A DNA stretch of 64,000 bases, taken from an uncultured Actinomycetota bacterium. Lineage in GTDB: Bacteria > Actinomycetota > Actinomycetes > Streptosporangiales > Streptosporangiaceae. Both the position numbers and the translations under genes were made by a program. The stretch spans positions 147 through 64,146 of the forward strand of contig CAWGIM010000018.1 in NCBI GenBank assembly GCA_963822615.1. The letters are read 5' to 3'. The stretch's first letter is position 1, and each line of letters starts with the position of its first letter. Of this stretch, positions 2,651 to 15,515 are shown one piece after another. Under the pieces are notes generated by a model. It did not search any database and was not told where the DNA came from. It saw nothing but the letters and a program-made list of their open reading frames with translations.

Positions 2651-2695
2651 GAGCCCCTTTACGGAATCGAACCGTAGACCTTCTCCTTACCATGG
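2651..2695 (-). repeat. att-type direct repeat: duplicated 3' part of tRNA-Thr
   Basis: GAGCCCCTTTACGGAATCGAACCGTAGACCTTCTCCTTACCATGG is identical at 2651-2695 and 7984-8028. Confidence 0.95.
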
Positions 2696-2817
2696 GAGAG
2701 CGCAACCGGCCCGCGACCTGCACAGACTTCCGGCAGGCGTTCGATCTCAGCGCGCATTCGGCAAGAGTCCGCATGCGGAGCCCGAGATCCGGCGCCGCTG
2801 GCATGTCTCTCCACTCG

Positions 2818-3222
2818 CTACGCGGCTTGCTCGGCAGGTTCGTGCTCCCACACTTGTATGACTTGCCATCGCGCCTCTGCGAGGCGCCGGTCGGTGTCAG
2901 CGACTCGCTACGCTGGACGTTGCGCGGCGAGTTTCGTGCTGCCCACCATATGACTGCCGTTGCTCTTCGGCTGTGTCCCGTGCTCCGGGCAGCCGTGCCA
3001 GAAACATCCCGTCAATGAACACCGCGACCCTGGCACCCCTGAAGAGGGGATCCGCCCGGCGCCGCATCCCTGGAATGACCGGCGCATCGACCCGGCACCG
3101 CAGTCCTGACTTGAAGAGGATTCGGCGGATAGCCATCTCGGCTTAGTGTCACGCCGCCGCTGCCTGGTCATCCGGGCAAGCGCCTCGGGACTAGAAGCTG
3201 AGGGCCGCTGACCGCTGGTCAT
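2818..3222 (-). pseudogene. vsr: Very short patch repair endonuclease (Vsr), multiply frameshifted
   Basis: Collinear Vsr segments spread over different frames: 'ARMTRQRRRDTKP', 'MAIRRILFKSGLRCRV...RRRAD..F..ARVAVFIDG', 'CFWHGCPEHGTQPKSN', 'DTDRRLAEARWQVIQVWEHE'. Confidence 0.85.
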
Positions 3223-3347
3223 GACACCAACGTATCTCGGCCCCTCCATCGGTCAGGCTACTGGTCGAAACTGCCATCTACCAGGACATTTCTATACTTC
3301 TCACGTACCGCGCATTTGCCTGGTATAGGGGCTTTCCCGCTGGTAGC

Positions 3348-4658
3348 TTGACGTTTGTGACGGACCCACCAGAGATAAGCGAGATATTCGAGCAGCATCT
3401 GCGCAACGTCCCGCATAGAGCATCGATAAATAACAAATACCGGATCTTCAATCGCGCACTGGCCGAGCTATTGAATATAGCTCCAGAGGATATTTACACA
3501 TCACATATAGCCAAGGCCGGTAACTTCGATGTCCGAATGACCCAATCTCCAGGAGCCCGCGAAGCAAAGCTCCGCGTCGCCCTCATCCCTGCTGTCCTTT
3601 TTGCAGATCGAGATCTAGCCTCTCTAAAAAATGCAGCCTGGAGGTTTGCGCGGGATAAGTTCCCGGGCAGCTCCGTGCTGCTAGTTTTTGATCAGCCCAA
3701 TGGATGGCGCCCCGCGTGGGCGGCAGAACCTGCAGACCGGCCAGATTCCGGGGCAGGGCTTTCTTACTTTTTCCGATACATCGAAGACTTCGAACTCTAC
3801 GAATACTCACCTCTTGCACAAGCGTCGGACGCCGGGATAAGCGTTACCCTCACCAAACAGGAGGCGCGACTGCTGAAGGTCATGTTGTCCCGTCCAGAGA
3901 CAACTAGGGCATTGTATGAGATCGAGCCGAATCTATTTGCCAGATTGATTGAAACCGATGTCTCGGCGCGAGATGTAGTAGCTATCGCACATCGCAAGTC
4001 AGTAGTTGACCGCTTTCGGCGCCTGCTTCAGGATCACGATTTCTTCGAAGATGCCGCCGAGGCCCTCGGCGGCAAAGAGGCAGTCTGGCAAAACCTCCTA
4101 GAGGAGAATCCCTGGATTCTCGGCGTCAGTCTCGCCGGGCAGCTCCTGACCAGCTGGGATGAGGAGAAACTGGAGAAGATCGTTGCCGGTTTCTCTGTCT
4201 CTGGGCCAGGAAAGCGAGTTGATGCGCTCATGCGCACCAACGGCAGCATCAGGGCTATGGTTTTCGCTGAGATCAAACACCATGAGACAGCCTTGCTGGG
4301 CGCAGAATATCGCCCGAGCTGCTGGGCGCCGTCACCCGAACTCGCGGGCGGCGTGGTTCAGGCTCAGCGAACGGTTCAGCTAGCTATTCGCCAGATCGGC
4401 GACCGGCTTGCCGATGAAGATGAGCACGGGATCGAAACCGGCGATTACACGTACCTAGTCCGCCCCCGCCAGTTTCTCATTCTCGGGAACCTTGCCGACT
4501 TCAGAGGCGAGCACGGAATCCACAGGCAGAAATACGAGTCTTTCGAGCTTTTCAGGCGCAATATACTTGAGCCCGAGATACTCACCTTTGACGAGCTGCT
4601 AGCCCGCGCCGAATGGCACATAGCGTCAGCAGACCGAGAAGAAAATTTATTCAAGTAG
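3348..4658 (+). CDS. sduA: Shedu anti-phage nuclease (DUF4263 C-terminal domain) with an unassigned N-terminal domain
   Basis: C-terminal 'WQNLLEENPWILG...KRVDALM...FAEIKHHET...ELAGGVVQAQ...FELFRRNILEPEILTFDELLARA' fits the DUF4263/SduA PD-(D/E)xK pattern. TTG start. Confidence 0.85.
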   Translation: MTFVTDPPEISEIFEQHLRNVPHRASINNKYRIFNRALAELLNIAPEDIYTSHIAKAGNFDVRMTQSPGAREAKLRVALIPAVLFADRDLASLKNAAWRFARDKFPGSSVLLVFDQPNGWRPAWAAEPADRPDSGAGLSYFFRYIEDFELYEYSPLAQASDAGISVTLTKQEARLLKVMLSRPETTRALYEIEPNLFARLIETDVSARDVVAIAHRKSVVDRFRRLLQDHDFFEDAAEALGGKEAVWQNLLEENPWILGVSLAGQLLTSWDEEKLEKIVAGFSVSGPGKRVDALMRTNGSIRAMVFAEIKHHETALLGAEYRPSCWAPSPELAGGVVQAQRTVQLAIRQIGDRLADEDEHGIETGDYTYLVRPRQFLILGNLADFRGEHGIHRQKYESFELFRRNILEPEILTFDELLARAEWHIASADREENLFK

Positions 4659-4685
4659 AGGCACCGTAACGAGGCAGTCGTGATG

Positions 4686-4700
4686 TACAATGAAATTGTA
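4686..4700. promoter_or_regulatory. Palindrome TACAAT-gaa-ATTGTA (possible back-to-back -10 elements or operator)
   Basis: Perfect 6-bp arms, each a TAnnnT hexamer, in the AT-rich gap between sduA and the methyltransferase. Confidence 0.35.
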
Positions 4701-4848
4701 TGTGTGACTGACATTACGTTGACTCCGCAGAGCAAATATGCGCTTACCTTTAGGCGCGCACCTCTGCATAAGGCCGTAGATGCTAATCTCGGCCGGGCCT
4801 TCGGAGTGTCGGGTAGCGCGTCGCATCGTTGTGCGAGAGGATTCCGTT

Positions 4849-5997
4849 ATGGCTAGCCCTATGACCGCTGTCGGCCTCTTTGCCGGGATCGGTGGTGTCG
4901 AGGAAGGACTGGCCCGAGCCCACGCAGCAGAAGCCGAACTGCTAGTAGAAAACTGGGTTCCGGCGCAAGAGGTACTCCGAGCCCACTTCCCTGACGCCAA
5001 GCTCAAGGGCGATGTCACCGGCGTGAGGTCACTGCCCAAGGTGGACCTCCTGGCAGCTGGCTTTCCCTGCACGGACCTGTCGCAGGCTGGCCGTACCGCC
5101 GGTATCACCGGCAAGGCCAGCGGACTCGTCAGGTGCGTGTTCGACCTGCTCGAGTCCGCCAATCCCACATGGCTGGTCTTCGAAAATGTCCGGAACATGC
5201 TGGTGCTCGACAAGGGTGACGCCATGCGCTACCTAGTCGGAGAACTGGAGGAGCGCGGCTACAGGTGGGCGTACCGGCTGGTGGACAGCCGTTTCACTGG
5301 CGTCCCCCAACGGCGACAGCGAGTCATCATGCTTGCCAGTCGCACCGAGAACCCCGCTGACGTGCTTCTCGCTGACGACGCCGGAGAGCCCGCCGCAGAG
5401 CACTACCAGGATGCCGCCTTCGGCTTCTACTGGACCGAGGGGCTGACGGGCCTCGGATGGGCGCAGGACGCCATACCGACGCTCAAGCCCGGCAGCACGG
5501 TGGGCATCCCTAGTCCTCCCGGAATCTGGGTCAAGTCAGCCGAGCCCGGCCGCAAGCTCATCGTCCCGTCCATCGAGGAAGCCGAGGAACTCCAGGGCTT
5601 CGATCGGGGCTGGACAAGCGCTGCCGAATCCTCGAAGTCCAATGGTCCGCGGTGGAAACTCGTTGGAAACGCGGTGACGGTCGGCGTCAGCCAGTGGCTC
5701 GGCGGCAAGCTACTCGACCCCGGCCAGCATGACCAGCACAATGGCGCCCTCGTTTCGAACGGCCGATGGCCGCTCGCCGCATGGGGCGGCATCGGCAAGG
5801 TCTACCGTGCCGATGTATCGATGTGGCCGACCCGACTCCCCTACCGACACCTGCTGGACACCGTGGCGTCAGACACTGCGCGGCCCGTCAGCCACCGTGC
5901 TGCCGCAGGGTTCTACAGCCGCATGCTCAGGTCTGGTCTCAGATTCAACGAGGCGTTCAAGTCGGATGTCTGCGAGCATGTCCGGGTCACCAACTAG
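4849..5997 (+). CDS. DNA (cytosine-5) methyltransferase
   Basis: C5-MTase motifs in order: FAGIGG (I), GFPCTDLSQAG (IV, catalytic PC), ENV (VI), QRRQRV (VIII), GNAV (X). GAGAGG precedes the ATG at 4849. Confidence 0.95.
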   Translation: MASPMTAVGLFAGIGGVEEGLARAHAAEAELLVENWVPAQEVLRAHFPDAKLKGDVTGVRSLPKVDLLAAGFPCTDLSQAGRTAGITGKASGLVRCVFDLLESANPTWLVFENVRNMLVLDKGDAMRYLVGELEERGYRWAYRLVDSRFTGVPQRRQRVIMLASRTENPADVLLADDAGEPAAEHYQDAAFGFYWTEGLTGLGWAQDAIPTLKPGSTVGIPSPPGIWVKSAEPGRKLIVPSIEEAEELQGFDRGWTSAAESSKSNGPRWKLVGNAVTVGVSQWLGGKLLDPGQHDQHNGALVSNGRWPLAAWGGIGKVYRADVSMWPTRLPYRHLLDTVASDTARPVSHRAAAGFYSRMLRSGLRFNEAFKSDVCEHVRVTN

Positions 5998-6896
5998 GTG
6001 TCCAGGTCTTGGGTATCGTCTGCGCTCTCAATTACTTGGTCAAGGGTAAGTTCTTGCTCGGCTTCGAGGCCAGTCGGTAGGGAACCCTCTGGAGGCGCCC
6101 ATCCAGGGTCATCCTCGGCATAACGCTCATGCCTGTTAACGCCCGTATTCCTAAGAATCACGGCATCGTCGATGGTCTCGATTAGCTCGGCGAGGCTAAT
6201 CGTCTGCGTGTCCGGTGGCGGCTGATTTCTTCGAGGAGCCTGCGTCACATCGAAGAAACGAACGTGTCCGGCTTCGTCAAACAGGCCGATATAAACCTGC
6301 TCGAAGAGGTCGAAGCGGGAATCAGGCGACCCTCGCCCGGTGCGCTTACGGAGCGTGAATACAACATGGGCGAAACTACTCTGCCCCGCAACGCCATCCC
6401 AAGCCGCATCTTCATTCATGAAGAAGATTCCGGTTAGCACCGCGTAAGGCTGCCGCCGATGGAGCGTGTCAGCCTCGTCACGGAGCTCCATGTCATTGCG
6501 CTTTACGTTCTTGACGTAGCGCCCCACCCTGGCAGGCTGAGTCTTCGTAGTGGGCTGAGTATCGCGAAACGTATACGTCTTGATCGATATGCCTGCGACC
6601 AGGCCCGCCGCGTCATCCCAGACGCCAACGTCAGTGCGCTTCCGGTCAACCTTGGCACCCACGCTGAACTCCTGGCCGGACCCGTCCGGCCGCGGCGTCA
6701 CCCTGGCCCTGGGGTACCTCGGCCGTAGGTGATCGGCGAACGTCATCGCCAGAGCATTGCTGAACCGCTGCGCCCAGTTCTTCTTGGCCGCTCGGTTATC
6801 GCCACCGGCCACGGTCAAGGTGTCGGGCTTGGGCAGGCCTGCGGCCTCAAGTGCGGCCAACAGCGGCGCCTCGCCAGGGTCGCTGTCCATCGCCAC
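5994..6896 (-). CDS. Putative type II restriction endonuclease (PD-(D/E)xK-like)
   Basis: 300-aa ORF convergent with the MTase; the two stops share one CTAG. Candidate catalytic residues 'KRTDV...GISIK'. The call rests on context plus this motif. Confidence 0.55.
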   Translation of the reverse strand: MAMDSDPGEAPLLAALEAAGLPKPDTLTVAGGDNRAAKKNWAQRFSNALAMTFADHLRPRYPRARVTPRPDGSGQEFSVGAKVDRKRTDVGVWDDAAGLVAGISIKTYTFRDTQPTTKTQPARVGRYVKNVKRNDMELRDEADTLHRRQPYAVLTGIFFMNEDAAWDGVAGQSSFAHVVFTLRKRTGRGSPDSRFDLFEQVYIGLFDEAGHVRFFDVTQAPRRNQPPPDTQTISLAELIETIDDAVILRNTGVNRHERYAEDDPGWAPPEGSLPTGLEAEQELTLDQVIESADDTQDLDT

Positions 6897-7126
6897 GCGG
6901 AGAACGCTACGCGCTTACCCGCAACACCGGCAGTCGTTGCAGCAAACTGGTGATCATTGGCCTTCGCCGGACAAGACCTCGTTCCCCAGCCCGGGGGGCG
7001 CGGGACGAGCTGTGCGGGTCGGACAGCTCGGCCGAGCACCCGCAACCGAGAGTGCGCGGTCCGGTGCCGTGTCAGGGCGCCGAAGCGCCGCATCGAGGAA
7101 GCCCTCGGTGACCCCGGCGAGGATAG

Positions 7127-7744
7127 GGGGTCTTCGAGCAGTCGCCCCACCTCGGCCTGGACAACGTGGAGACCGTTCAGAACAGCATCAGCAAGTCCTC
7201 GTCCAAGCTGGTCGCGTACAACACGCTGCACACCGCGTTCGACACCGGCTGGAGGATTGACCTGAACGACCAGGCGAGCCTCGACAAGGAGATCAAGTGG
7301 GTCGTGGACGCCTTCGACGACCTGGCGCGGGCCCTTCCGATTGGCAAGGTTGGGGAGGCCGCGGCTCAGAAGCTACGTGACAGCAGTGTGGTCCGCAGCG
7401 CGGTCCTGGTGCAGGGCTACATCGCCCTGATGTGCGAGATCCGCGAGCTTGACGGCTCGCCCGAGGAGTACTTCCAGAAGCTGCCGGGGAGCATCACGCT
7501 GGAGGCCGACTCGGCCGAGACCGTGCGCGACAAGGACGGCGAGATCGTGCCTCGCTTCTGCGCGGGTGAGGTAGTCGACTTCTTCTCCTACGCCAACCCG
7601 ATCTGGAGGGAGACCGGGTTCCTGCGGCCCAACGTGGACAAGAAGACCGGGCTCACCAAGATGGGCATGTTCAACGCCCGCCAGCAGCGCAACAACGTCA
7701 TCGCGGTGCTGCGGGAGCGGGTCGGCCTGCCCGACGCGAGCTGA
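7127..7744 (+). pseudogene. 5'-truncated DndB/DGQHR-like protein remnant
   Basis: 'VETVQNSISKSSSKLVAYNTL', 'LRDSSVVRSAVLVQG' and 'FSYANPIWR' resemble the C-terminal half of DndB-like proteins as I recall them. In-frame TAG at 7124; a frameshift near 7125-7131 joins an upstream fragment. No N-terminal half is present. Confidence 0.4.
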
Positions 7745-7778
7745 CGAGCTCCAACCGGGGAACCCACCGCGGCTGATT

Positions 7779-7820
7779 CCAAGCGGCCCCGACCGGCGTG
7801 CGCCGGTCGGGGCCGCTTGG
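7779..7820. terminator. Long perfect inverted repeat, likely bidirectional terminator
   Basis: CCAAGCGGCCCCGACCGGCG-tg-CGCCGGTCGGGGCCGCTTGG: 20-bp arms between the convergent DndB-like remnant and tRNA-Thr. Confidence 0.7.
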
Positions 7821-7984
7821 CATGCTGCCGGTAAGGCCACCATCCGAGCCAGTTGGATTTCAACGCGTCTTCAACGCAGACACCCGTAGAGGACCGGCTA
7901 AGACCGCAGATAGCCGGAAACCGAAAACGCCACCCGATCGGCTTTCTTCCTAATGGAGTGGCATTTTTCGTGCTTACGTTCGGG

Positions 7985-8057
7985 AGCCCCTTTACGGAAT
8001 CGAACCGTAGACCTTCTCCTTACCATGGAGACGCTCTGCCGACTGAGCTAAAGGGGC
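7985..8057 (-). tRNA. tRNA-Thr (GGT)
   Basis: Reverse complement folds as a cloverleaf: acceptor GCCCCTT/AAGGGGC, D arm GCTC/GAGC, anticodon stem TCTCC/GGAGA with loop ATGGTAA, T arm TACGG-TTCGATT-CCGTA. CCA is not encoded. Confidence 0.97.
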
Positions 8058-8175
8058 CTGCCGCAACTGCCGACGGCGATGAGCTTACCGTACTTTCAAC
8101 GTGTTGGTGACTTGGGCTGGAGGCCGCGCCCGTGCCCGGCGCACAGGGCACGCAGACGGCCTGCCAGCCTCCGGG

Positions 8176-8688
8176 CTATGCGCCAGTGACGCCGTCGATC
8201 CGCTCGCGCAGCAGGTCGGCGTGACCGTTGTGCCGGGCGTACTCCTCGATCAGGTGGACGTAGATCCAGCGCAGGCTGACATCCTGCTGCGCGAAGCGGC
8301 CGGTGTCGGTCAAGGCGCGGTCGGCGCAGTTCTTGCGGGCGCAGTCGACCTCTGCCCGCCAGGTGGCGAGGGCGTCCCCCAGGGTGGCGTCCTGCGCTAG
8401 TTCGAAGCCGCCGTCGGGCCCGTCGGGGTCCGCTTGCGGGTCGTAGATGGGCGGAGCCTGTTCCCCTGCCAGCACCCGCCGGAACCAGTTCCGTTCCACC
8501 TCCGCCATGTGCTGGACAAGGCCAGTCAGCGTGAACGGAGACGGCCGCGCCGACGGGGAGGCGGCCTGCTCGTCGTCCAGCCCAGTGCACTTCATGGCAA
8601 GGGTGGTGCGGTGAAACTCAAGCCAGCCTTCGAGCGTGGTGCGCTCGTCCGCGTTCAGCGGGGGTATCTGGCGGTCGATGTCGCTCAC
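8176..8688 (-). CDS. DinB family protein (DUF664-like)
   Basis: '[18 protein letters not shown]', '[13 protein letters not shown]' and '[22 protein letters not shown]'. Confidence 0.85.
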
Positions 8689-8695
8689 CAGTTGA

Positions 8696-9187
8696 TTATC
8701 GCGTGAGCAGCCTGCGGGTCCGCTCCGGCAGCCCAGCAGGCAGCGACTGGACGATGTCGGCGACGGTCACGGTGGACAGCGACTGCCGCCAGGCGGCCTC
8801 GGCTTCCGCCATCCGGACGGCGATGCCGCAGGCCGGCACGCACACGTTGGGCGGCACCGGGACCGCACCGCGGCCGCGCTGGCGGATCTCGTTGCAGGTG
8901 TAGAACGGCGCCGCGCCGTCTACTGCCTCGACGATCTCCAGCATGGTGACCTGCTCGGCCGGGCGGGCCAGCCGGAAACCGCCGCGCGGCCCGGTGGCCG
9001 CGCTGAGAATCCCGGCCCGGACGAGCGACTGAAGCTGCTTGACCAGGTACCCGGCCGGGATGTCGTAGTGCTCGGCCAGTTGCGCGGCCGACACCGCTTG
9101 CGCGGGCCGTCCTGCTTCGCCGGGTCCGAGCTGGGCCAGCGCGGTAACAGCGTGCAAGACCCACTCGGTGCTCTCCGGCAACTTCAT
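8696..9187 (-). CDS. Rrf2 family transcriptional regulator
   Basis: '[26 protein letters not shown]' and a Cys pattern 'CNEIRQRG...C.PAC.IA..M'. Confidence 0.9.
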
Positions 9188-9248
9188 GCGCCAAGGCTAG
9201 CAGATATGTCTATTGAGGATATTAAAGCTCCATGATAGCTTCGCAGTC

Positions 9249-10007
9249 ATGAAGATCGCAGTCGCGGGATCCACGGGCCGCATCGGACGGCTCACCATCA
9301 AGGCACTCCAGGGCGCCGGGCACGAGGCCGTGCGCATCAGCCGCAGCGACGGCACCGACCTGCTCACGGGCGATGGGCTCGACGCGGCGCTGGCCGGGGC
9401 GGACGCCGTCATCGATTGCCTCAACAACTCGTCACAGGACGAGGCGGAAGTAGTGCACTTCTTCGGCACGACGACGCGGAACCTGCTGGCGGCCGAGGCG
9501 CGGGCCGGCGTGGGCCACCACGTGCTGCTGTCCATCGTGGGGCTGGACCGCGGGACCCGTTCGCCGCACTACGCGGGCAAGCGGGAACAGGAACGCCTGG
9601 TCACCGAGGGGCCCACACCGTGGTCGATCGTCCGGGTGACCCAGTTCCACGACTTCGCGGCCATGGTGACCGGGTGGCTGGAGCAGGACGGCGTGGCCAG
9701 TATCGCGCCGCTGCTGGTGCAGCCGATCGACCAGCTTGACGTGGCGGCCGTGCTCGCCGAGGTGGCGGCCGGGGCGCCGCTGCGGGACAAGATCGACGTG
9801 GCCGGGCCGCAGCCGCAGGACCTGGTGGACATGGCCCGCCGCTCCTATGCCGCCCGGGGACGGCCGATCACGCTGATCCCCACCTGGCACGCGGGGTTCG
9901 ACCAGTCGATGGCGGGCGACGTGCTGCTTCCCGGCCAGGACGCGCGCCTTGCGCCCATCTCCTTCGAGGACTGGCTGGCGGCCGGGGCACCGGACAGCCG
10001 CGGCTAG
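9249..10007 (+). CDS. NAD(P)H-binding NmrA/SDR-like oxidoreductase
   Basis: 'MKIAVAGSTGRIG' Rossmann motif, 'HHVLLSIVG' and 'RVTQFHDF'. Divergent from the Rrf2 gene. Confidence 0.85.
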   Translation: MKIAVAGSTGRIGRLTIKALQGAGHEAVRISRSDGTDLLTGDGLDAALAGADAVIDCLNNSSQDEAEVVHFFGTTTRNLLAAEARAGVGHHVLLSIVGLDRGTRSPHYAGKREQERLVTEGPTPWSIVRVTQFHDFAAMVTGWLEQDGVASIAPLLVQPIDQLDVAAVLAEVAAGAPLRDKIDVAGPQPQDLVDMARRSYAARGRPITLIPTWHAGFDQSMAGDVLLPGQDARLAPISFEDWLAAGAPDSRG

Positions 10008-10010
10008 CTC

Positions 10011-10199
10011 TCAGGCGCCCTCGGCCGGCAACTCGGTCCCCAGCAGCGCGCCGTATGCCTCGATGGCGAGGTCGATGTCCTTGGAGGCCATGTGGCCGAC
10101 CAGGAAGGCCAGGCCTTCCCGGCTGAGGTCGCCCATCATGCACAGCAGCGCCACCAGGCGCTCGGCGTACTCGGGGGCGATCCCCTCTGGGTGATTCAT
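10011..10199 (-). CDS. Small hypothetical protein (62 aa)
   Basis: ATG start, host-like codon use, non-repetitive composition. Confidence 0.5.
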   Translation of the reverse strand: MNHPEGIAPEYAERLVALLCMMGDLSREGLAFLVGHMASKDIDLAIEAYGALLGTELPAEGA

Positions 10200-10336
10200 G
10201 CGGTTACGTTACCTTTGTGCGCTTTGTCGCCGCAGGTCATCCGGAAATCCGCCGGTCATCGGGAAGTGGAGCCTGCGCGGGGCCGCCGCAAGGGGGGACG
10301 GCGGCCCCGCGCAGGAGCTTGCTGACCGCTGCCCGG

Positions 10337-11374
10337 TTACTGCTGGAAGTCCGGGTTGGCGGTGGTGATGTCGTAGCTGCTCCCCCAGTACCACTGGGTG
10401 GCGCTGGAGCCGGGCACGACGTGGTTGACGCCGGTGGGGTCGGCGATCCAGTACCTGACCTTGGACTGCATCCACCCCGGGAGGGTCGCCACGTTGTCCT
10501 TGACCTGCTGCCACTCGGCCCGCATGGTGTAGACGACCGCGATCGAGTGGGGCTGCGAGGTCAGCCGCTGCTTCACCCACTGGGCCGCGGCCTGCGGGGT
10601 GGCGTCGCCCGGCTCGACGTCGAGGACGTTGGCGCCCGGGTCGGTGGCCTGGGTGTCGATCCACAGCACGGTGTGGTGGCCGGCGACCGTGTTCGGCTGG
10701 GTCGCGTAGGCGCCGGTGGCGTAGACGGCGGCCGCCTCGCCGGCCGGCAGCGAGCCCGGCTGCACCGAGTCGTAGATCAGGTAAGGCTTCGCCGCAGCGG
10801 CCTTCGCCGCGGCGGCCTTGGCCGCCGCCTCTTTCGCGGCGGATACCCGGGCGGCCGCTGACTTGGCCGCCGCCGCCTTAACCGCCGCCGCCTTGGCCGC
10901 GGCGGCCTGGGTGGTGGTCGCCGCGGCGGCGTGCTTGCCCACGTAGGGCTGCGCGGCGGGCGCCTTGGGGGCCGTCACCGTGGCGGCGTGCTTGCCCAGC
11001 GCCACCGCGGTGCTGTGCGAGGAGGTCGCGGCCGAGTGCAGCGCGTCCAGCTCGGTGGTGCCGCCTGCCGTCTTGCTGCCGGTGATCGGGGCGAACGCGA
11101 AGGCGCCGGACTGGCCGACGGCCACCTTCCCGTCGCCCTGCGCGACGTGGCCGACGTTGTCGAGCGCCTGCGCCCAGGGGGCCGCGCCAACGGCGAAGCC
11201 CGCCGCGCCGAGCACGCCCGCGGTGGCGGCGGAGGCGGCCAGCGCGGTGACCCGGGTGTGGGCGCGGGCCTGGGCACGGGCCTGGGTGAGGGCCGCGGTT
11301 CCGGTGGAGCGGGCGAAAGAGTTCGCGGCCGTGTACGTGTTTGCTGCTACACGAGTGAGGGAAGTGGTGGACAT
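10337..11374 (-). CDS. Secreted or membrane-anchored protein with Ala-rich linker and C-terminal GH25-like muramidase domain
   Basis: Hydrophobic segment 'VLGAAGFAVGAAPW', then an AAAK-rich linker. C-terminal domain has 'IYDS', 'LDVEPGD' (DxE), 'VYT', 'YWIAD' and 'ATQW...YD'. Confidence 0.6.
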   Translation of the reverse strand: MSTTSLTRVAANTYTAANSFARSTGTAALTQARAQARAHTRVTALAASAATAGVLGAAGFAVGAAPWAQALDNVGHVAQGDGKVAVGQSGAFAFAPITGSKTAGGTTELDALHSAATSSHSTAVALGKHAATVTAPKAPAAQPYVGKHAAAATTTQAAAAKAAAVKAAAAKSAAARVSAAKEAAAKAAAAKAAAAKPYLIYDSVQPGSLPAGEAAAVYATGAYATQPNTVAGHHTVLWIDTQATDPGANVLDVEPGDATPQAAAQWVKQRLTSQPHSIAVVYTMRAEWQQVKDNVATLPGWMQSKVRYWIADPTGVNHVVPGSSATQWYWGSSYDITTANPDFQQ

Positions 11375-12067
11375 GCGTGAACGAGCACGATGTGAATGGT
11401 GTTGCAAAACATTGCCCTTGGGGTGGCGCCTGTTACGTCGGGAGGCGCGCTGATTTCACCCTCCACGCTGCCGGCCGGTGCGACGCACCGTAGCGACGGC
11501 AGGGGCATGGACGTTGCCGCGGGTCAAGGCGACGTGTTGCGGGGGAGCAACCATCACACACCTGGGGTGCTTAACTACCGACGAGTAAACACCAGGCGAT
11601 GGCAGCTCATACCAAGATTTGCCGAAAACACTCCGTGAGCAATGTCACGCAGAGTAAGCAAGGTTCGCCACCGCGAGCGGCATCCCCGTGCCCGCAAAGG
11701 TTCCGGGACCCGACCCCTCGGGAACGGTGCGCGAATCTTTTTCCGCCCGCTGGCCAGGGATGACCCAGGGAACAATACGCTCCGCACATAGAGCGTTACT
11801 GGTTGAAGATTACCGAGCACAGGCCGTGTTGGCAAGCTCACGCCTTAGGCAATGCGTTACCGACCGTGACAACGATGGCAAGCCGGCCGCGCGGGCACCG
11901 AGCCAAGCCGGGTCGGAAGGCGGCCCGGAGGTGGTAGCGCTCCGGCGGTGTTTGCGGTGCAATGGTAGGCGAAGCGCGACAAGCGGGCCGGGCCCGCTTC
12001 ATGAAGCCACTCCATACCGAGCAAATCGTTCCGCAGCAGTAACGAGCAGCACTGGTAGGGCGTTCTC

Positions 12068-13516
12068 ATGCGTCTGGCGCACGCACGACCCGCGACCGCG
12101 GCCCTGGTGGCGGGGGGTGTCCTGGTAACCGCCGCATCCGGCGCGGGCCTCGCGGCAGCGGCTGGCCCCGCGGCGGCGGCGGGCTTCCGCCCGCTCGCCG
12201 ACGAGTCTTGCCAGCCGGAACCGGCCGCCGTCCAGGCCGACCCGCCGGCATCGGCATCGGCATCGGCATCGGCATCGGCATCGGCATCGGCCAGCATCGC
12301 CAACAGCGACAGCGCCAGTCCTGCCGCCAGCGGTAGCGCCGCACCGTCAGACAGCGCCGCCCCTACAGACAGCGCCACGCCCTCCGGGAGCGCCACACAG
12401 GCCGCTATCCCCGCACCCGCCAGCAGCGCGGCCCCCGCCAGCAGCGCCGCCCCCGACGCCAGCGCCACTCCCGCCCCTACGGGTACCGGGCAGCCCGGTC
12501 TCTGCCTGGAGGTGGTCCGCGCGCGGCCTGCGAGCGCACCCGGCCAGCCAGCGCAGTGGAAGGTCACGGTGTGGGCCACCGGCGGCGTCGTTCCCGACGC
12601 CGCACTGACCTTGCGGGTAACTCCCGCCGGCGGCGGCACGGCGACGTTCCGCTACGGCTGCGGCACCGGCGACGGCACCGCTTCCTGCGACCTCGGCGCG
12701 GTGGACCCGGCGGCCGCCCGGCAGCAGCTCCGGGTCACGCTCGCGCAGCCTGCGGGCACCGCGGGGGCCGGGACGGCCACGCTGACGGTCTCCGGCTGCG
12801 CGGGCCAGCGGGCGACGGCACCCGCGGCGCCGGGCGCCGTATCCGTGACGGTGCCGGCCAGCGCCCCGGCACCCGCGGTACCCGGCCAGGCGGCGGCCAG
12901 CCCGCCAACCTCCCCCGCACCGTCAGGAACGGCGCCGCCGAGCGAGCCGGCCGCCGCCCCGGCCGGGCTGGCCTCCCCGACCGGATCACCCGCTCCCACC
13001 CGATCGGCGGCCGGCCAGCAGTCTCCCGCCAGCCAGCAGCTCCCCGCCAGCCAGCAGCCTCCCCCGCCAGAGCCCCCGAGCAAGCGTCCCGCCAGCCAGC
13101 AGCCGCCCGCTAGCCGGAAGCCGCTACCGCCGTCGGCTGGCACCCTGCCCGGGCTCCCTGCCAGCGCCGCGGCCCTGCCAGCGTTGCCTGGACTCACGCC
13201 GACCAGTCCTGACCTCGCACCCGGCGGCAACGCGGCCAGCCTGTTCCCCACCCTGGACCCGCCGCCGCCCTCGGCCGGGTCAACCACCCCGACCGGGCCA
13301 GCCACGCCGCGCGGGAAGGCGGAACCGGCCGGGCCGACCGGGAAGGCGGGCACCCGGCAGGTCGCCAACTCCTCGGCGCTGCCCTCGGGTACCCAGGCCA
13401 TCGGGACGCGGGTAGCCGGCCTGGCGGTGCTCGCCCTGGCGGTCGCGGCGGCGGTGACCCGCCTGCCGGCGCGCCGCCGGGCTAAGAAAGAGACCGACGG
13501 GGAGAGCGGCCGATAA
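12068..13516 (+). CDS. Pro/Ala/Ser-rich exported protein with C-terminal membrane anchor
   Basis: N-terminal signal-like peptide, a central beta-rich Cys-containing segment, low-complexity linkers, and a C-terminal TM followed by RRRAKK. Confidence 0.6.
   Translation: MRLAHARPATAALVAGGVLVTAASGAGLAAAAGPAAAAGFRPLADESCQPEPAAVQADPPASASASASASASASASIANSDSASPAASGSAAPSDSAAPTDSATPSGSATQAAIPAPASSAAPASSAAPDASATPAPTGTGQPGLCLEVVRARPASAPGQPAQWKVTVWATGGVVPDAALTLRVTPAGGGTATFRYGCGTGDGTASCDLGAVDPAAARQQLRVTLAQPAGTAGAGTATLTVSGCAGQRATAPAAPGAVSVTVPASAPAPAVPGQAAASPPTSPAPSGTAPPSEPAAAPAGLASPTGSPAPTRSAAGQQSPASQQLPASQQPPPPEPPSKRPASQQPPASRKPLPPSAGTLPGLPASAAALPALPGLTPTSPDLAPGGNAASLFPTLDPPPPSAGSTTPTGPATPRGKAEPAGPTGKAGTRQVANSSALPSGTQAIGTRVAGLAVLALAVAAAVTRLPARRRAKKETDGESGR
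12247..12288 (+). repeat. (GGCATC)7 in-frame microsatellite encoding (Ala-Ser)n
   Basis: Seven perfect hexamer copies within the 12068..13516 CDS. Confidence 0.9.
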
Positions 13517-13601
13517 CCGCTCCGGCACCCGGGGGGTACCCGGATGCCAACGTGAGCGTCAGCCGGCCGGGCGGCTGCCCGGGCCGGCTTACGCCGGGCG
13601 C

Positions 13602-15515
13602 CTACTTGGCGAGGAGCTCCAGGTTGGGCCGCACGGTGTCCATCGTGGCGGCCAGCTTCGCGGTGGTCATCGTCGGTGATACCACGGTGCCGAAGGTGTC
13701 GTTGTCGAACCACACGCACATCGACGAGCTCTGATCGTTCTGGGTGATCGTGGTGCAGGCGGCCTGGCCGCCGAGCGACCCCGGCGATACGGCCTGGGCG
13801 CCCTTGTACGAGTGCTCGAAGTTGGCCACCGACGCGCTCGGGTCGGCGCCGGCCAGCTTTCCGCCGACGAACATGAAGATCTGGGCGCTGCTGCCGGCCG
13901 TGCCGCTGAGGCTGCCCTGCTGGTAGACGGCGGACACCACGTCGCTGGCCTGGCCGGAGCTGGCCTGGGCGATCTGCTGCGCCTGGTTGTCGACCTTCAT
14001 CTGCTTTTCCAGGTTGGCCGACCTGGTGTAGCTGTCGACCGTCTGCGGCGCCACGACCTGGTGGGCCGGGCCGCTCGGCCCGGAGAACGCGTACTTCATC
14101 AGCACGCCGCCGATCGCGCCGGCCGCGACGATCGCGATCGCGCCGAGCGCCATCCACTGCCGGCGGTCACCGCTGCGGCCGCGGCGGCGACCGCCCGCGC
14201 GCCTGGCGGTGGTGTCCTCGTCCTGCTCTGGCCGGTCGATGGTGCGGGTGAACGCGGCCGGCACCGGCTCGTCGGTCAGGTCAAGGTCGGCGAAGTGGTC
14301 CAGCGAGGTGTCCTCGGCCCAGCTGCGCGGCGAGCGGGCAGGCGGGGCGAGCACCGCGGTGGCGTTCCCGGCCGCCCGGAGGCCGCCGCCCGGCGTGAGG
14401 GCGCGCAGGTTGTCCAGCCTGGTCTCGTCGAACACCGGCACGTCGAACCGGGTGTGGTCGGCCGGCTCGGTCAGGGCCTGCAGGTCGTAGCGGGTTTCCC
14501 GGTTCCGGGCGCTGCGGCTGGAAGAGTCGGCCGAGGGGAACTCGGAACGGGGGCGGCTGCCTCCGTCGAACGCGTCATTGCCGCCGTACCCGGCCGGGCC
14601 GCCATCGCGCTGTCCGTCGGCGCCGGGCTGCCAGCGGTTGTCCAGCCGGGTCTCGTCGAAGGCACCGCCGGGATACCCGCCCTGGTCGGTGTACCGCCGG
14701 TCGTCGTAGCGGGGGTCGTCGTAGGAGAGCCGGCCGTAGCTCGGCTCGTCGTAGCCGACTGCCTCGAAGTCGCTGGTGCCGATGATGCCCGACAGGTCGT
14801 AGCCGGGGCCGTTGATGCCCGGCATGGAGTAGTCGTTGTACGCGCCCGGGTCGTAGGCGGCCGGCTGGTACCGGGCCGGGCCGGGGTCGGCCGGGCCGGC
14901 GTTGCCGTGACCGGCGGCCGGGTAGCCGCCGGACGGCTGGTAGGCGTCGTCTTCGCCGTCGTAGCGCAGCGGCTGGTCATAGTCCCACGGCTGGCTGTAG
15001 AGGTCAGCCCCGCGGCCGGCGTCCGCGGGGGACGGCGGGTAGGCCATCTCGATCTCGCCGGGCCCGGCGTAGCTTGACCCGGAATAGCCTGCCTGCCCGT
15101 ATCCGGGCTGCTCCCAGCCGGCCTGGGGATAGCCGGCCTGGGGGTAACCGGGCTGGCCGTAGTCCGCCGCGGTCGGGCTGGAGAGCGGGTAGCCGGGCTG
15201 ACCCGGCTCGACGAAGCCGCGCACCGTCCTGGTGCCGGCGATGCCCGCGTCCTGCGCGGCTGGCCCCTGGTAACCCGGGTCGCTGTAACCGTCGTCGCCG
15301 TAGCCTGCCCCGTTAAACGCGGCGTAGGGGTGCGCGCCCTGGCTGGCGGCCGGGAGCTGCGGCGGCCGCTGGTCCGGGTAGCGGTGGTCTCCATTCCGGT
15401 AGTCCATTTCGGGAAAACCATTCGGCCACGAGATCTCCGGCCCGAACGGCACATGACCCTGGTCGGAAGGGTGCATGCCCTGTCCGTCCCCGGAATGCGG
15501 CCATCCGCTCCTCAT
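13602..15515 (-). CDS. Hypothetical membrane protein with long Tyr/Pro/Gly/Asp-rich cytoplasmic region, single TM and extracellular C-terminal domain
   Basis: 637-aa ORF with TM 'WMALGAIAIVAAGAIGGVLM' and a C-terminal domain containing 'C...CVWFDNDTFG'. The start is uncertain. Confidence 0.65.
   Translation of the reverse strand: MRSGWPHSGDGQGMHPSDQGHVPFGPEISWPNGFPEMDYRNGDHRYPDQRPPQLPAASQGAHPYAAFNGAGYGDDGYSDPGYQGPAAQDAGIAGTRTVRGFVEPGQPGYPLSSPTAADYGQPGYPQAGYPQAGWEQPGYGQAGYSGSSYAGPGEIEMAYPPSPADAGRGADLYSQPWDYDQPLRYDGEDDAYQPSGGYPAAGHGNAGPADPGPARYQPAAYDPGAYNDYSMPGINGPGYDLSGIIGTSDFEAVGYDEPSYGRLSYDDPRYDDRRYTDQGGYPGGAFDETRLDNRWQPGADGQRDGGPAGYGGNDAFDGGSRPRSEFPSADSSSRSARNRETRYDLQALTEPADHTRFDVPVFDETRLDNLRALTPGGGLRAAGNATAVLAPPARSPRSWAEDTSLDHFADLDLTDEPVPAAFTRTIDRPEQDEDTTARRAGGRRRGRSGDRRQWMALGAIAIVAAGAIGGVLMKYAFSGPSGPAHQVVAPQTVDSYTRSANLEKQMKVDNQAQQIAQASSGQASDVVSAVYQQGSLSGTAGSSAQIFMFVGGKLAGADPSASVANFEHSYKGAQAVSPGSLGGQAACTTITQNDQSSSMCVWFDNDTFGTVVSPTMTTAKLAATMDTVRPNLELLAK

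Follow-up and report, generated by a model that had tools for sequence, protein, structure and literature searches.

Organization of the islet

This study concerns a 5.3-kb islet located at positions 2651–8028 of a 64-kb stretch of DNA from an uncultured soil actinobacterium (contig CAWGIM010000018.1; "the window" refers to this whole stretch), in which a gene for a Shedu nuclease (sduA) is situated directly upstream of a gene for a C5 cytosine DNA methyltransferase (MTase), and the latter converges on a gene for a probable Type II restriction endonuclease (REase). The window consists of high-GC actinobacterial DNA, and the flanks of the islet encode mycothiol-dependent enzymes, prolyl-tRNA synthetase (ProRS), and other housekeeping genes. 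The islet itself is probably a decayed, integrase-less insertion in a tRNA-Thr(GGT) gene that carries a live cassette of three coupled genes. The following features were identified (evidence in parentheses):

2651–2695, no strand: distal attachment (att) copy and outer islet boundary, an exact duplicate of tRNA-Thr nucleotides 31–75
2812–3216, minus strand: vsr pseudogene (very-short-patch repair endonuclease; Pfam Vsr, TIGR00632, tblastn)
3348–4658, plus strand: sduA, Shedu nuclease of 436 aa (Pfam SduA_C, PADLOC SduA)
4849–5997, plus strand: C5 cytosine DNA methyltransferase of 382 aa (Pfam, TIGRFAM, PADLOC)
5994–6896, minus strand: probable Type II restriction endonuclease of 300 aa (context and motifs)
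7127–7744, plus strand: DndB-like 3′ fragment (PF14072, phmmer, tblastn with homologue P0361)
7779–7820, no strand: perfect 20-bp inverted repeat with a 2-nt spacer, 35 bp past the dndB-like stop codon (read from the sequence)
7982–8058, minus strand: intact tRNA-Thr(GGT), whose 3′ part (7984–8028) is the proximal att copy (ARAGORN, Rfam RF00005)

The initial annotation of this locus, made from the sequence alone, had described a 45-bp duplication of the tRNA-Thr gene reaching into the anticodon arm, and this duplication proved to be both exact and correctly placed. The 45-mer (i.e., 5′-GAGCCCC...CCATGG-3′) occurs exactly twice in the window, at 2651–2695 and 7984–8028, with 45 of 45 bp identical, and no further copy was found in the window when up to eight substitutions were allowed (chance expectation of 0). 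A search for a third, degenerate att copy, which would be a sign of tandem islands, was likewise negative. The tRNA-Thr(GGT) gene is present as a single copy (RF00005 score of 66 bits), and the core it shares with the distal copy comprises the last two bases of the 5′ strand of the anticodon stem, the anticodon loop, the variable loop, the T arm, and the 3′ acceptor strand. Between the repeats the GC content drops to 53–66%, compared to about 70–77% in the flanks.

The absence of a recombinase, also noted in the initial annotation, was borne out by every line of inspection. No open reading frame (ORF) between the repeats encodes one, no islet ORF had a Pfam match to an integrase, and tblastn with two integrase queries remained blank across the window. 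Moreover, since the intergenic stretches measure at most 270 bp, a recombinase gene cannot fit inside the islet. The types of the five genes that had been placed between the repeats were recognized correctly as well, but only three of these genes are intact, with vsr and the dndB-like gene being wrecked.

The three intact genes

The sduA product was matched by the Pfam SduA_C model (PF14082; 6.9e-29, 101 bits vs. a cutoff of 27) and by the PADLOC SduA model (PDLC00394; 1.6e-104), and it resembles the Shedu protein of Bacillus cereus (8ti8) both by profile (2e-16) and by Foldseek (1.3e-5). Its true start is possibly the GTG codon at 3357. The protein is built from a lineage-specific N-terminal domain (approximately residues 1–170, of the "4263N27" type, abbreviated here as N27), a helical linker, and a C-terminal DUF4263 nuclease domain of the PD-(D/E)XK type. 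Judged from the alignment, in which E252, D292, E308, K310, Q338, and Q340 are invariant among 30 homologues, its catalytic motifs (E, D, ExK, Q) are intact. The N-terminal domain was modelled with high confidence (predicted local distance difference test score, pLDDT, of ~90) as an alpha/beta fold. Foldseek found no fold match for this domain in the PDB, a profile search of the PDB hit only the C-terminal nuclease domain, and hhalign revealed no relation between the N-terminal domain and the 300-aa endonuclease encoded further downstream.

The MTase, which likely starts at the ATG codon at 4849 (the reading frame being open upstream to 4780), was identified by PF00145 (9.4e-41), TIGR00675 (2.2e-39), and, over its full length, the PADLOC MTase_II model (PDLC03324; 1.5e-120). 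Its translation displays FAGIGG, FPCTDLS, ENV, QRRQR, and GNAV, corresponding to motifs I, IV, VI, VIII, and X, and its nearest solved structure is M.HhaI, which it matches in the catalytic half only.

The 300-aa ORF converges on the MTase gene and overlaps the 3′ end of the latter by 4 bp. Sequence searches of Pfam, NCBIfam, PADLOC, and the PDB gave no match. At least 200 homologues of ~300 aa make up its family, in which E75, D88, and S103-x-K105 are invariant and, in the structural model (pLDDT of 88, alpha/beta), come to lie on consecutive strands. Foldseek searches against the PDB yielded weak matches only, several of them to PD-(D/E)XK nucleases and none of them significant. Context and motif, rather than homology, thus designate this protein as a probable Type II restriction endonuclease of an uncharacterized family. 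The label of restriction endonuclease in the initial annotation agrees with this context and these motifs, but it cannot draw on homology to any known enzyme.

Recurrence of the cassette

The homologues of SduA are split, with approximately 30 sharing the whole protein including the 170 N-terminal residues, and hundreds sharing only the linker and the nuclease domain. When metagenomes were scanned with the SduA family alignment, 80 loci were returned. A C5 MTase of the same type was adjacent in all five loci whose SduA matched over its full length, and in none of the 75 loci whose SduA carried another N-terminal domain (Fisher test, 4e-8; 29 of these 75 are flanked on either side by 1.3 kb or more of sequence). 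An MTase-Vsr-SduA arrangement was seen again in three additional look-ups, one of them for the isolate Pseudonocardia humida. Altogether, the MTase gene was adjacent in 11 out of 11 distinct loci with an N27-type SduA (the window, L004, L005, L006, L007, L089, L091, L092, L168, L169, and L170), usually together with Vsr. Synteny of Shedu with restriction-modification (R-M) genes, which the initial annotation had singled out, therefore recurs elsewhere, and it is confined to one SduA subtype. No N27-type SduA was found in plasmids (PLSDB) or viral contigs (IMG/VR).

Two gene orders are seen among these loci, i.e., [vsr]-sduA-MTase converging on the REase gene, and MTase-vsr-sduA, and they correspond to two clades of the MTase. 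The link between sduA and the MTase gene holds across both orders, across several genomic contexts, and across SduA identities of 50–66%. Moreover, the identity matrices of SduA and MTase are correlated (Mantel r = 0.59, p = 2e-4), which shows, at the level of the sequences compared, that both proteins diversified together. An all-versus-all comparison of the neighboring ORFs revealed Vsr, REase, DrmABC, and TrwC as the only other shared families.

The first gene order is seen in the loci with the closest homologues of the REase (L005, L006, and L007; 77–81% identity). In L005, L006, and L007/L088, sduA-MTase converges on the REase gene with the identical 4-bp overlap, and in L005 and L006 an intact vsr is located directly upstream of sduA on the same strand. 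At the DNA level, homology of the window with L006/L007 extends from 4786 to ~6912. More generally, the REase family adjoins this MTase family in seven loci including the window, and in L002, L003, and L005–L007 it is convergent with, and overlaps or abuts the 3′ end of, the MTase gene or the MTase-Vsr unit. In L004, the REase gene is divergent and lies ~1.5 kb from the MTase gene. The same L004 locus displays an sduA gene that is split into two ORFs (3491–4819) and probably disrupted, next to intact MTase and vsr genes, and its REase gene is found beside insertion sequence fragments (rve, HTH_Tnp_1).

These data bear on the explanation that Shedu and the R-M genes are independent, uncoupled neighbors that merely cluster as defense genes. 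Shedu does suffice as a single gene where it has been tested, defense islands are common, and the REase family also occurs without SduA in distant loci of Geodermatophilus (L002) and Nocardioides astragali (L003), where MTase-Vsr converges on the REase gene. Nevertheless, the contrast between the N27-type loci and the 75 others, maintained over different gene orders, contexts, and degrees of SduA divergence, together with the congruent divergence of SduA and MTase, renders such independence improbable.

In three loci the MTase-Vsr-SduA(N27) trio neighbors genes of the DISARM system. It comes after DrmA-DrmB-DrmC in L170 (1–8329) and after DrmA-DrmB in L005 (8019–16797), and it faces a convergent DrmC in L089 (2803–7088). 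In the full texts of the literature searched, no link of Shedu to DISARM, or to Vsr/Dcm, was found. The window itself was considered as a candidate DISARM system, and this candidate was rejected given that DrmA, DrmB, and DrmC are absent.

Decayed cargo and noncoding features

The vsr remnant contains two frameshifts and one in-frame stop codon, and would as an intact ORF encode about 140–150 aa. It is matched by Pfam Vsr (2.4e-4) and, in two reading frames, by TIGR00632, and the Vsr proteins of relatives align to it by tblastn with an E-value of 2e-27 (residues 4–133 of 148). It is inverted with respect to the intact vsr of relatives and is located on the strand opposite to that of sduA in the window. 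The vsr-Shedu-MTase arrangement highlighted in the initial annotation is therefore not a vsr-sduA-dcm operon in the window, where vsr is both inverted and dead; its intact form exists in L005 and L006.

The DndB-like fragment corresponds to residues 196–397 of homologues of ~397 aa, the 5′ half of the gene being gone, and its PF14072 score is 0.011, compared to 5e-10 for the full-length homologue P0361. No partner dnd genes were found beside the fragment, and PADLOC does not recognize the full-length homologue. The DndB-like ORF was rejected as a functional defense gene because of its truncation.

The inverted repeat at 7779–7820 resembles a terminator hairpin, albeit one that lacks a T-run, and a "mir-486" assignment at this position was discarded as a sub-threshold chance match in Rfam. 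A promoter and terminator scan gave chance-level output only. Just downstream of the tRNA gene, inside the islet (7949–7983), a 30–35-bp segment comprises a GTGGCATTTTTCGTGCTTACG hairpin and a T-run, and it matches 25 of 30 positions beside the tRNA-Thr core in a contig from sequencing run X4. This likeness is due either to an att arm that islands of one family have in common or to conservation of the terminator of the tRNA gene.

Boundaries and mobility of the islet

Related metagenome contigs track the window up to position 2649 and diverge exactly at the start of the repeat (2649/2650). In many soil contigs, the identical 45-bp core ends at the identical nucleotide and gives way to unrelated sequence that is not tRNA. 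In run X1, roughly a quarter of both flanks (574–2459 and 8422–13965), but nothing over 2671–7476, is covered by contigs with 98–100% identity to the window; by a rough count, no contig was seen over the islet where roughly eight would be expected. This pattern is suggestive, albeit not conclusive, of an islet-free variant in run X1. The breakpoint in the related contigs, the recurrent end of the core, and the apparent absence of the islet from X1 together support a true att junction.

It is highly improbable that the 45-bp repeat is a local duplication or the outcome of gene conversion instead of an integration scar, with the low-GC genes having arrived in another manner. This explanation is in line with the lack of an integrase, the lack of an empty site, and the finding that relatives have no tRNA beside the flank that adjoins the distal copy. 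However, the copy spans exactly the stretch from the anticodon loop to the tRNA 3′ end that is the classic core of actinomycete tRNA-integrating elements (of the pSAM2 and pSE101 types), and the boundary of the repeat coincides with a break in homology and abuts many unrelated sequences in soil metagenomes. The description of the locus as a tRNA-integrated island without its own integrase, as put forward in the initial annotation, is consequently well in keeping with the repeat, the low GC content, the defense cargo, and the 2649/2650 break.

An empty tRNA-Thr site in relatives, which the initial annotation had proposed as a check, was not found. Genome contigs scanned with the flanking MST/DinB protein yielded 80 GTDB loci at up to 84% identity without synteny to the window, none of them near a tRNA-Thr or the gene of the other flank, and the relatives of the left flank (MDMPI homologues with 84–92% protein identity) showed no tRNA-Thr beside the gene. 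None of the sequencing runs contains more than 8% of the region's words, and neither an empty-site junction nor a circle junction was recovered from the contigs of those runs. In a contig from run X7 (depth of 11), two copies of the 45-bp core stand in immediate succession (window position 2693 joined to 7983), the 3′ end of a tRNA-Thr running straight into a partial tRNA copy with no island in between; the contig may be misassembled, or it may record the scar left when another organism lost an island.

The left flank may have a history of its own. Relatives of the MDMPI gene share only positions 1752–2522, and each has a different gene downstream. Since the MDMPI segment (0.9 kb, including the downstream spacer) is 90–95% identical to metagenome contigs, compared to 73% for the neighboring housekeeping gene DAGK, the left flank, which adjoins the distal att copy, may itself be a recent acquisition. 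The AT-rich spacer upstream of MDMPI contains a palindrome (1640–1662; GGTGAAAA-CTATTAA-TTTTCACC), at a local GC trough of ~60% and near the 1752 synteny breakpoint.

The cassette also occurs elsewhere without a tRNA gene within 8 kb, and it was found near integrases in L007 and L169. Furthermore, large TrwC-type relaxase genes are situated 1–3 kb from the MTase-Vsr-SduA trio in L168–L170, where the module appears to ride on conjugative elements of actinobacteria. Given these neighborhoods, the cassette moves between carriers, and tRNA-Thr is only its present address. Within the islet, homology to L006/L007 stops at ~6912 and the dndB-like fragment starts at 7127, a spacing in the alignment that suggests replacement of part of an older island by the cassette.

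A proposed model for a coupled cassette

The preferred reading of the locus is as follows. An element would have entered the 3′ half of tRNA-Thr(GGT) by site-specific integration and then have lost its integrase, with the inverted, broken vsr and the 5′-truncated dndB-like gene presumably being debris of earlier cargo. The live cargo, i.e., sduA(N27), the C5 MTase gene, and the convergent REase gene, would move as a unit between actinobacterial genomic contexts. In this unit, the MTase is predicted to mark host DNA with 5-methylcytosine (m5C), and the 300-aa PD-(D/E)XK enzyme would cut unmethylated incoming DNA. SduA would act as a coupled second nuclease, triggered by the DNA ends that restriction makes on the DNA of the invader. 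As such, the MTase would shield the host from both nucleases, and self-protection of the whole unit would hang on the MTase. Vsr, where intact, would repair the T:G mismatches that arise from deamination of m5C.

The triggering step takes its lead from Shedu proteins that have been studied, in which the N-terminal domain keeps SduA inactive until this domain binds free DNA ends (PMC12904381); nicking by the Escherichia coli SduA is licensed once its N-terminal clamp has bound DNA ends (Loeff et al., summarized in PMC12904381).

Several points weigh against this reading, both for the cassette and for the islet. End-sensing by an N27-type SduA is extrapolated from the E. coli SduA, and the N27 domain has no structural relative. 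Neither by sequence nor by fold does the 300-aa endonuclease significantly match a known restriction enzyme. Moreover, five loci have MTase-(Vsr)-SduA without the 300-aa endonuclease, and for this reason restriction feeding Shedu cannot be the whole story. As to the islet, the evidence for an islet-free variant in run X1 consists of fragmentary, low-depth contigs. No empty attB was found, the contigs that match the left flank at 90–97% DNA identity have no adjacent tRNA-Thr, and the left-flank MDMPI gene (1752–2649) breaks synteny on both sides. Because of the missing attB and these synteny breaks, the history of the locus must be more complex than a single insertion.

The loci that lack any other recognizable nuclease lend some weight to the main rival reading, in which SduA is itself the restriction component, the m5C mark of its partner MTase protects the host, and the 300-aa nuclease or DrmABC is optional. 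The MTase and SduA genes are the only two present in all 11 loci, L092, L168, and L169 contain the pair or trio with neither a 300-aa nuclease nor a Drm protein nor any other recognizable nuclease partner, and SduA and MTase have co-diversified. An analogous reading was proposed by Gu et al. (bioRxiv 10.1101/2023.08.10.552793) for Shedu fused to N6/N4 methylase domains. Nevertheless, characterized Shedu proteins sense DNA ends and not methylation (PMC12904381), and the N27 domain adopts an alpha/beta fold that is not one of the known m5C-reader folds (SRA, EVE, PUA) and is unrelated to the endonuclease. In addition, the uncharacterized neighbors in L168 and L169 could be unrecognized nucleases. 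On balance, SduA as the restriction component seems rather unlikely.

A bolder formulation can be offered tentatively, as one possibility with a modest chance of being correct. N27-type SduA, the C5 MTase, and Vsr might form an obligate, self-contained Shedu-based R-M unit, in which m5C would decide whether SduA attacks, either directly or via the ends made by a co-resident nuclease, and which would serve as a portable core for a Type II endonuclease or for DrmABC.

Comparison with known systems

An association of Shedu with R-M systems was reported by Gu et al. (bioRxiv 10.1101/2023.08.10.552793), who found 602 of 5,499 Shedu genes within Type I–IV R-M systems and 87 within BREX, and who suggested that Shedu may complement R-M and BREX systems. 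In the same work, the P. humida homologue (MCO1658903.1, our P0154) is tabulated as "4263N27+DUF4263", a class of 13 entries that are all actinobacterial. The main text of that preprint is silent on N27, Vsr, C5 methyltransferases or cytosine methylation, and DISARM. The generic association of Shedu with R-M, and the N27 domain as such, are thus already known; what appear to be new are the subtype-specific and apparently obligate link to Dcm-Vsr, and the DISARM contexts.

With Shedu in R-M systems on record and its N-terminal domain catalogued as 4263N27 (Gu et al.), the initial annotation went too far in suggesting an "undescribed" composite system. Its proposal of a layered cassette of R-M and Shedu is upheld as far as recurrence and subtype specificity are concerned, and has to be given up for the vsr-containing operon and the undescribed status.

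The means by which Shedu nucleases spare the genome of their own host are described as still unresolved in a review (PMC12904381), and the roles of most of their N-terminal domains are likewise unknown. The link between the N27 domain and the MTase provides a testable handle on this, in that methylation might gate SduA, or the ends made by restriction might prime it. The presence of the trio beside DISARM genes further suggests that modification-based systems exchange a common core of methyltransferase, repair function, and back-up nuclease. For annotation purposes, an N27-type SduA should be called together with its methyltransferase and not as a stand-alone Shedu.

As an element, the islet resembles the actinomycete integrative and conjugative elements (AICEs) pSAM2, SLP1, and those of the pSE101 type in its direct repeat of a tRNA 3′ end, its atypical GC content, and its accessory cargo. 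It differs from them in having no integrase, excisionase, replication, or transfer genes, in its size of 5.3 kb, and in being partly pseudogenized.

As a cassette, it is related to the actinobacterial Dcm-Vsr m5C Type II modules of L002 and L003, with which it shares the MTase family (69–72% identity), the nuclease family (62–74%), and the convergent overlap. Unlike in these modules, sduA is located directly upstream of the MTase gene in the window, and vsr is displaced, inverted, and dead. Regarding DISARM class 2 (DrmA-DrmB-DrmC-DrmMII), the C5 MTase holds the position of DrmMII in L170, L005, and L089; the window differs in having no Drm genes, and its MTase scores far better as MTase_II (1.5e-120) than as DrmMII (1.3e-16) in PADLOC.

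Finally, the Shedu genes within R-M systems described by Gu et al. have in common with the window a DUF4263 nuclease of the PD-(D/E)XK type with all its motifs, a variable N-terminal regulatory domain, and a location in what is, for the window, a probable Type II R-M locus. The association reported by these authors is, however, one in bulk, whereas here it is apparently obligate for one N-terminal subtype and one MTase type, in two conserved gene orders.

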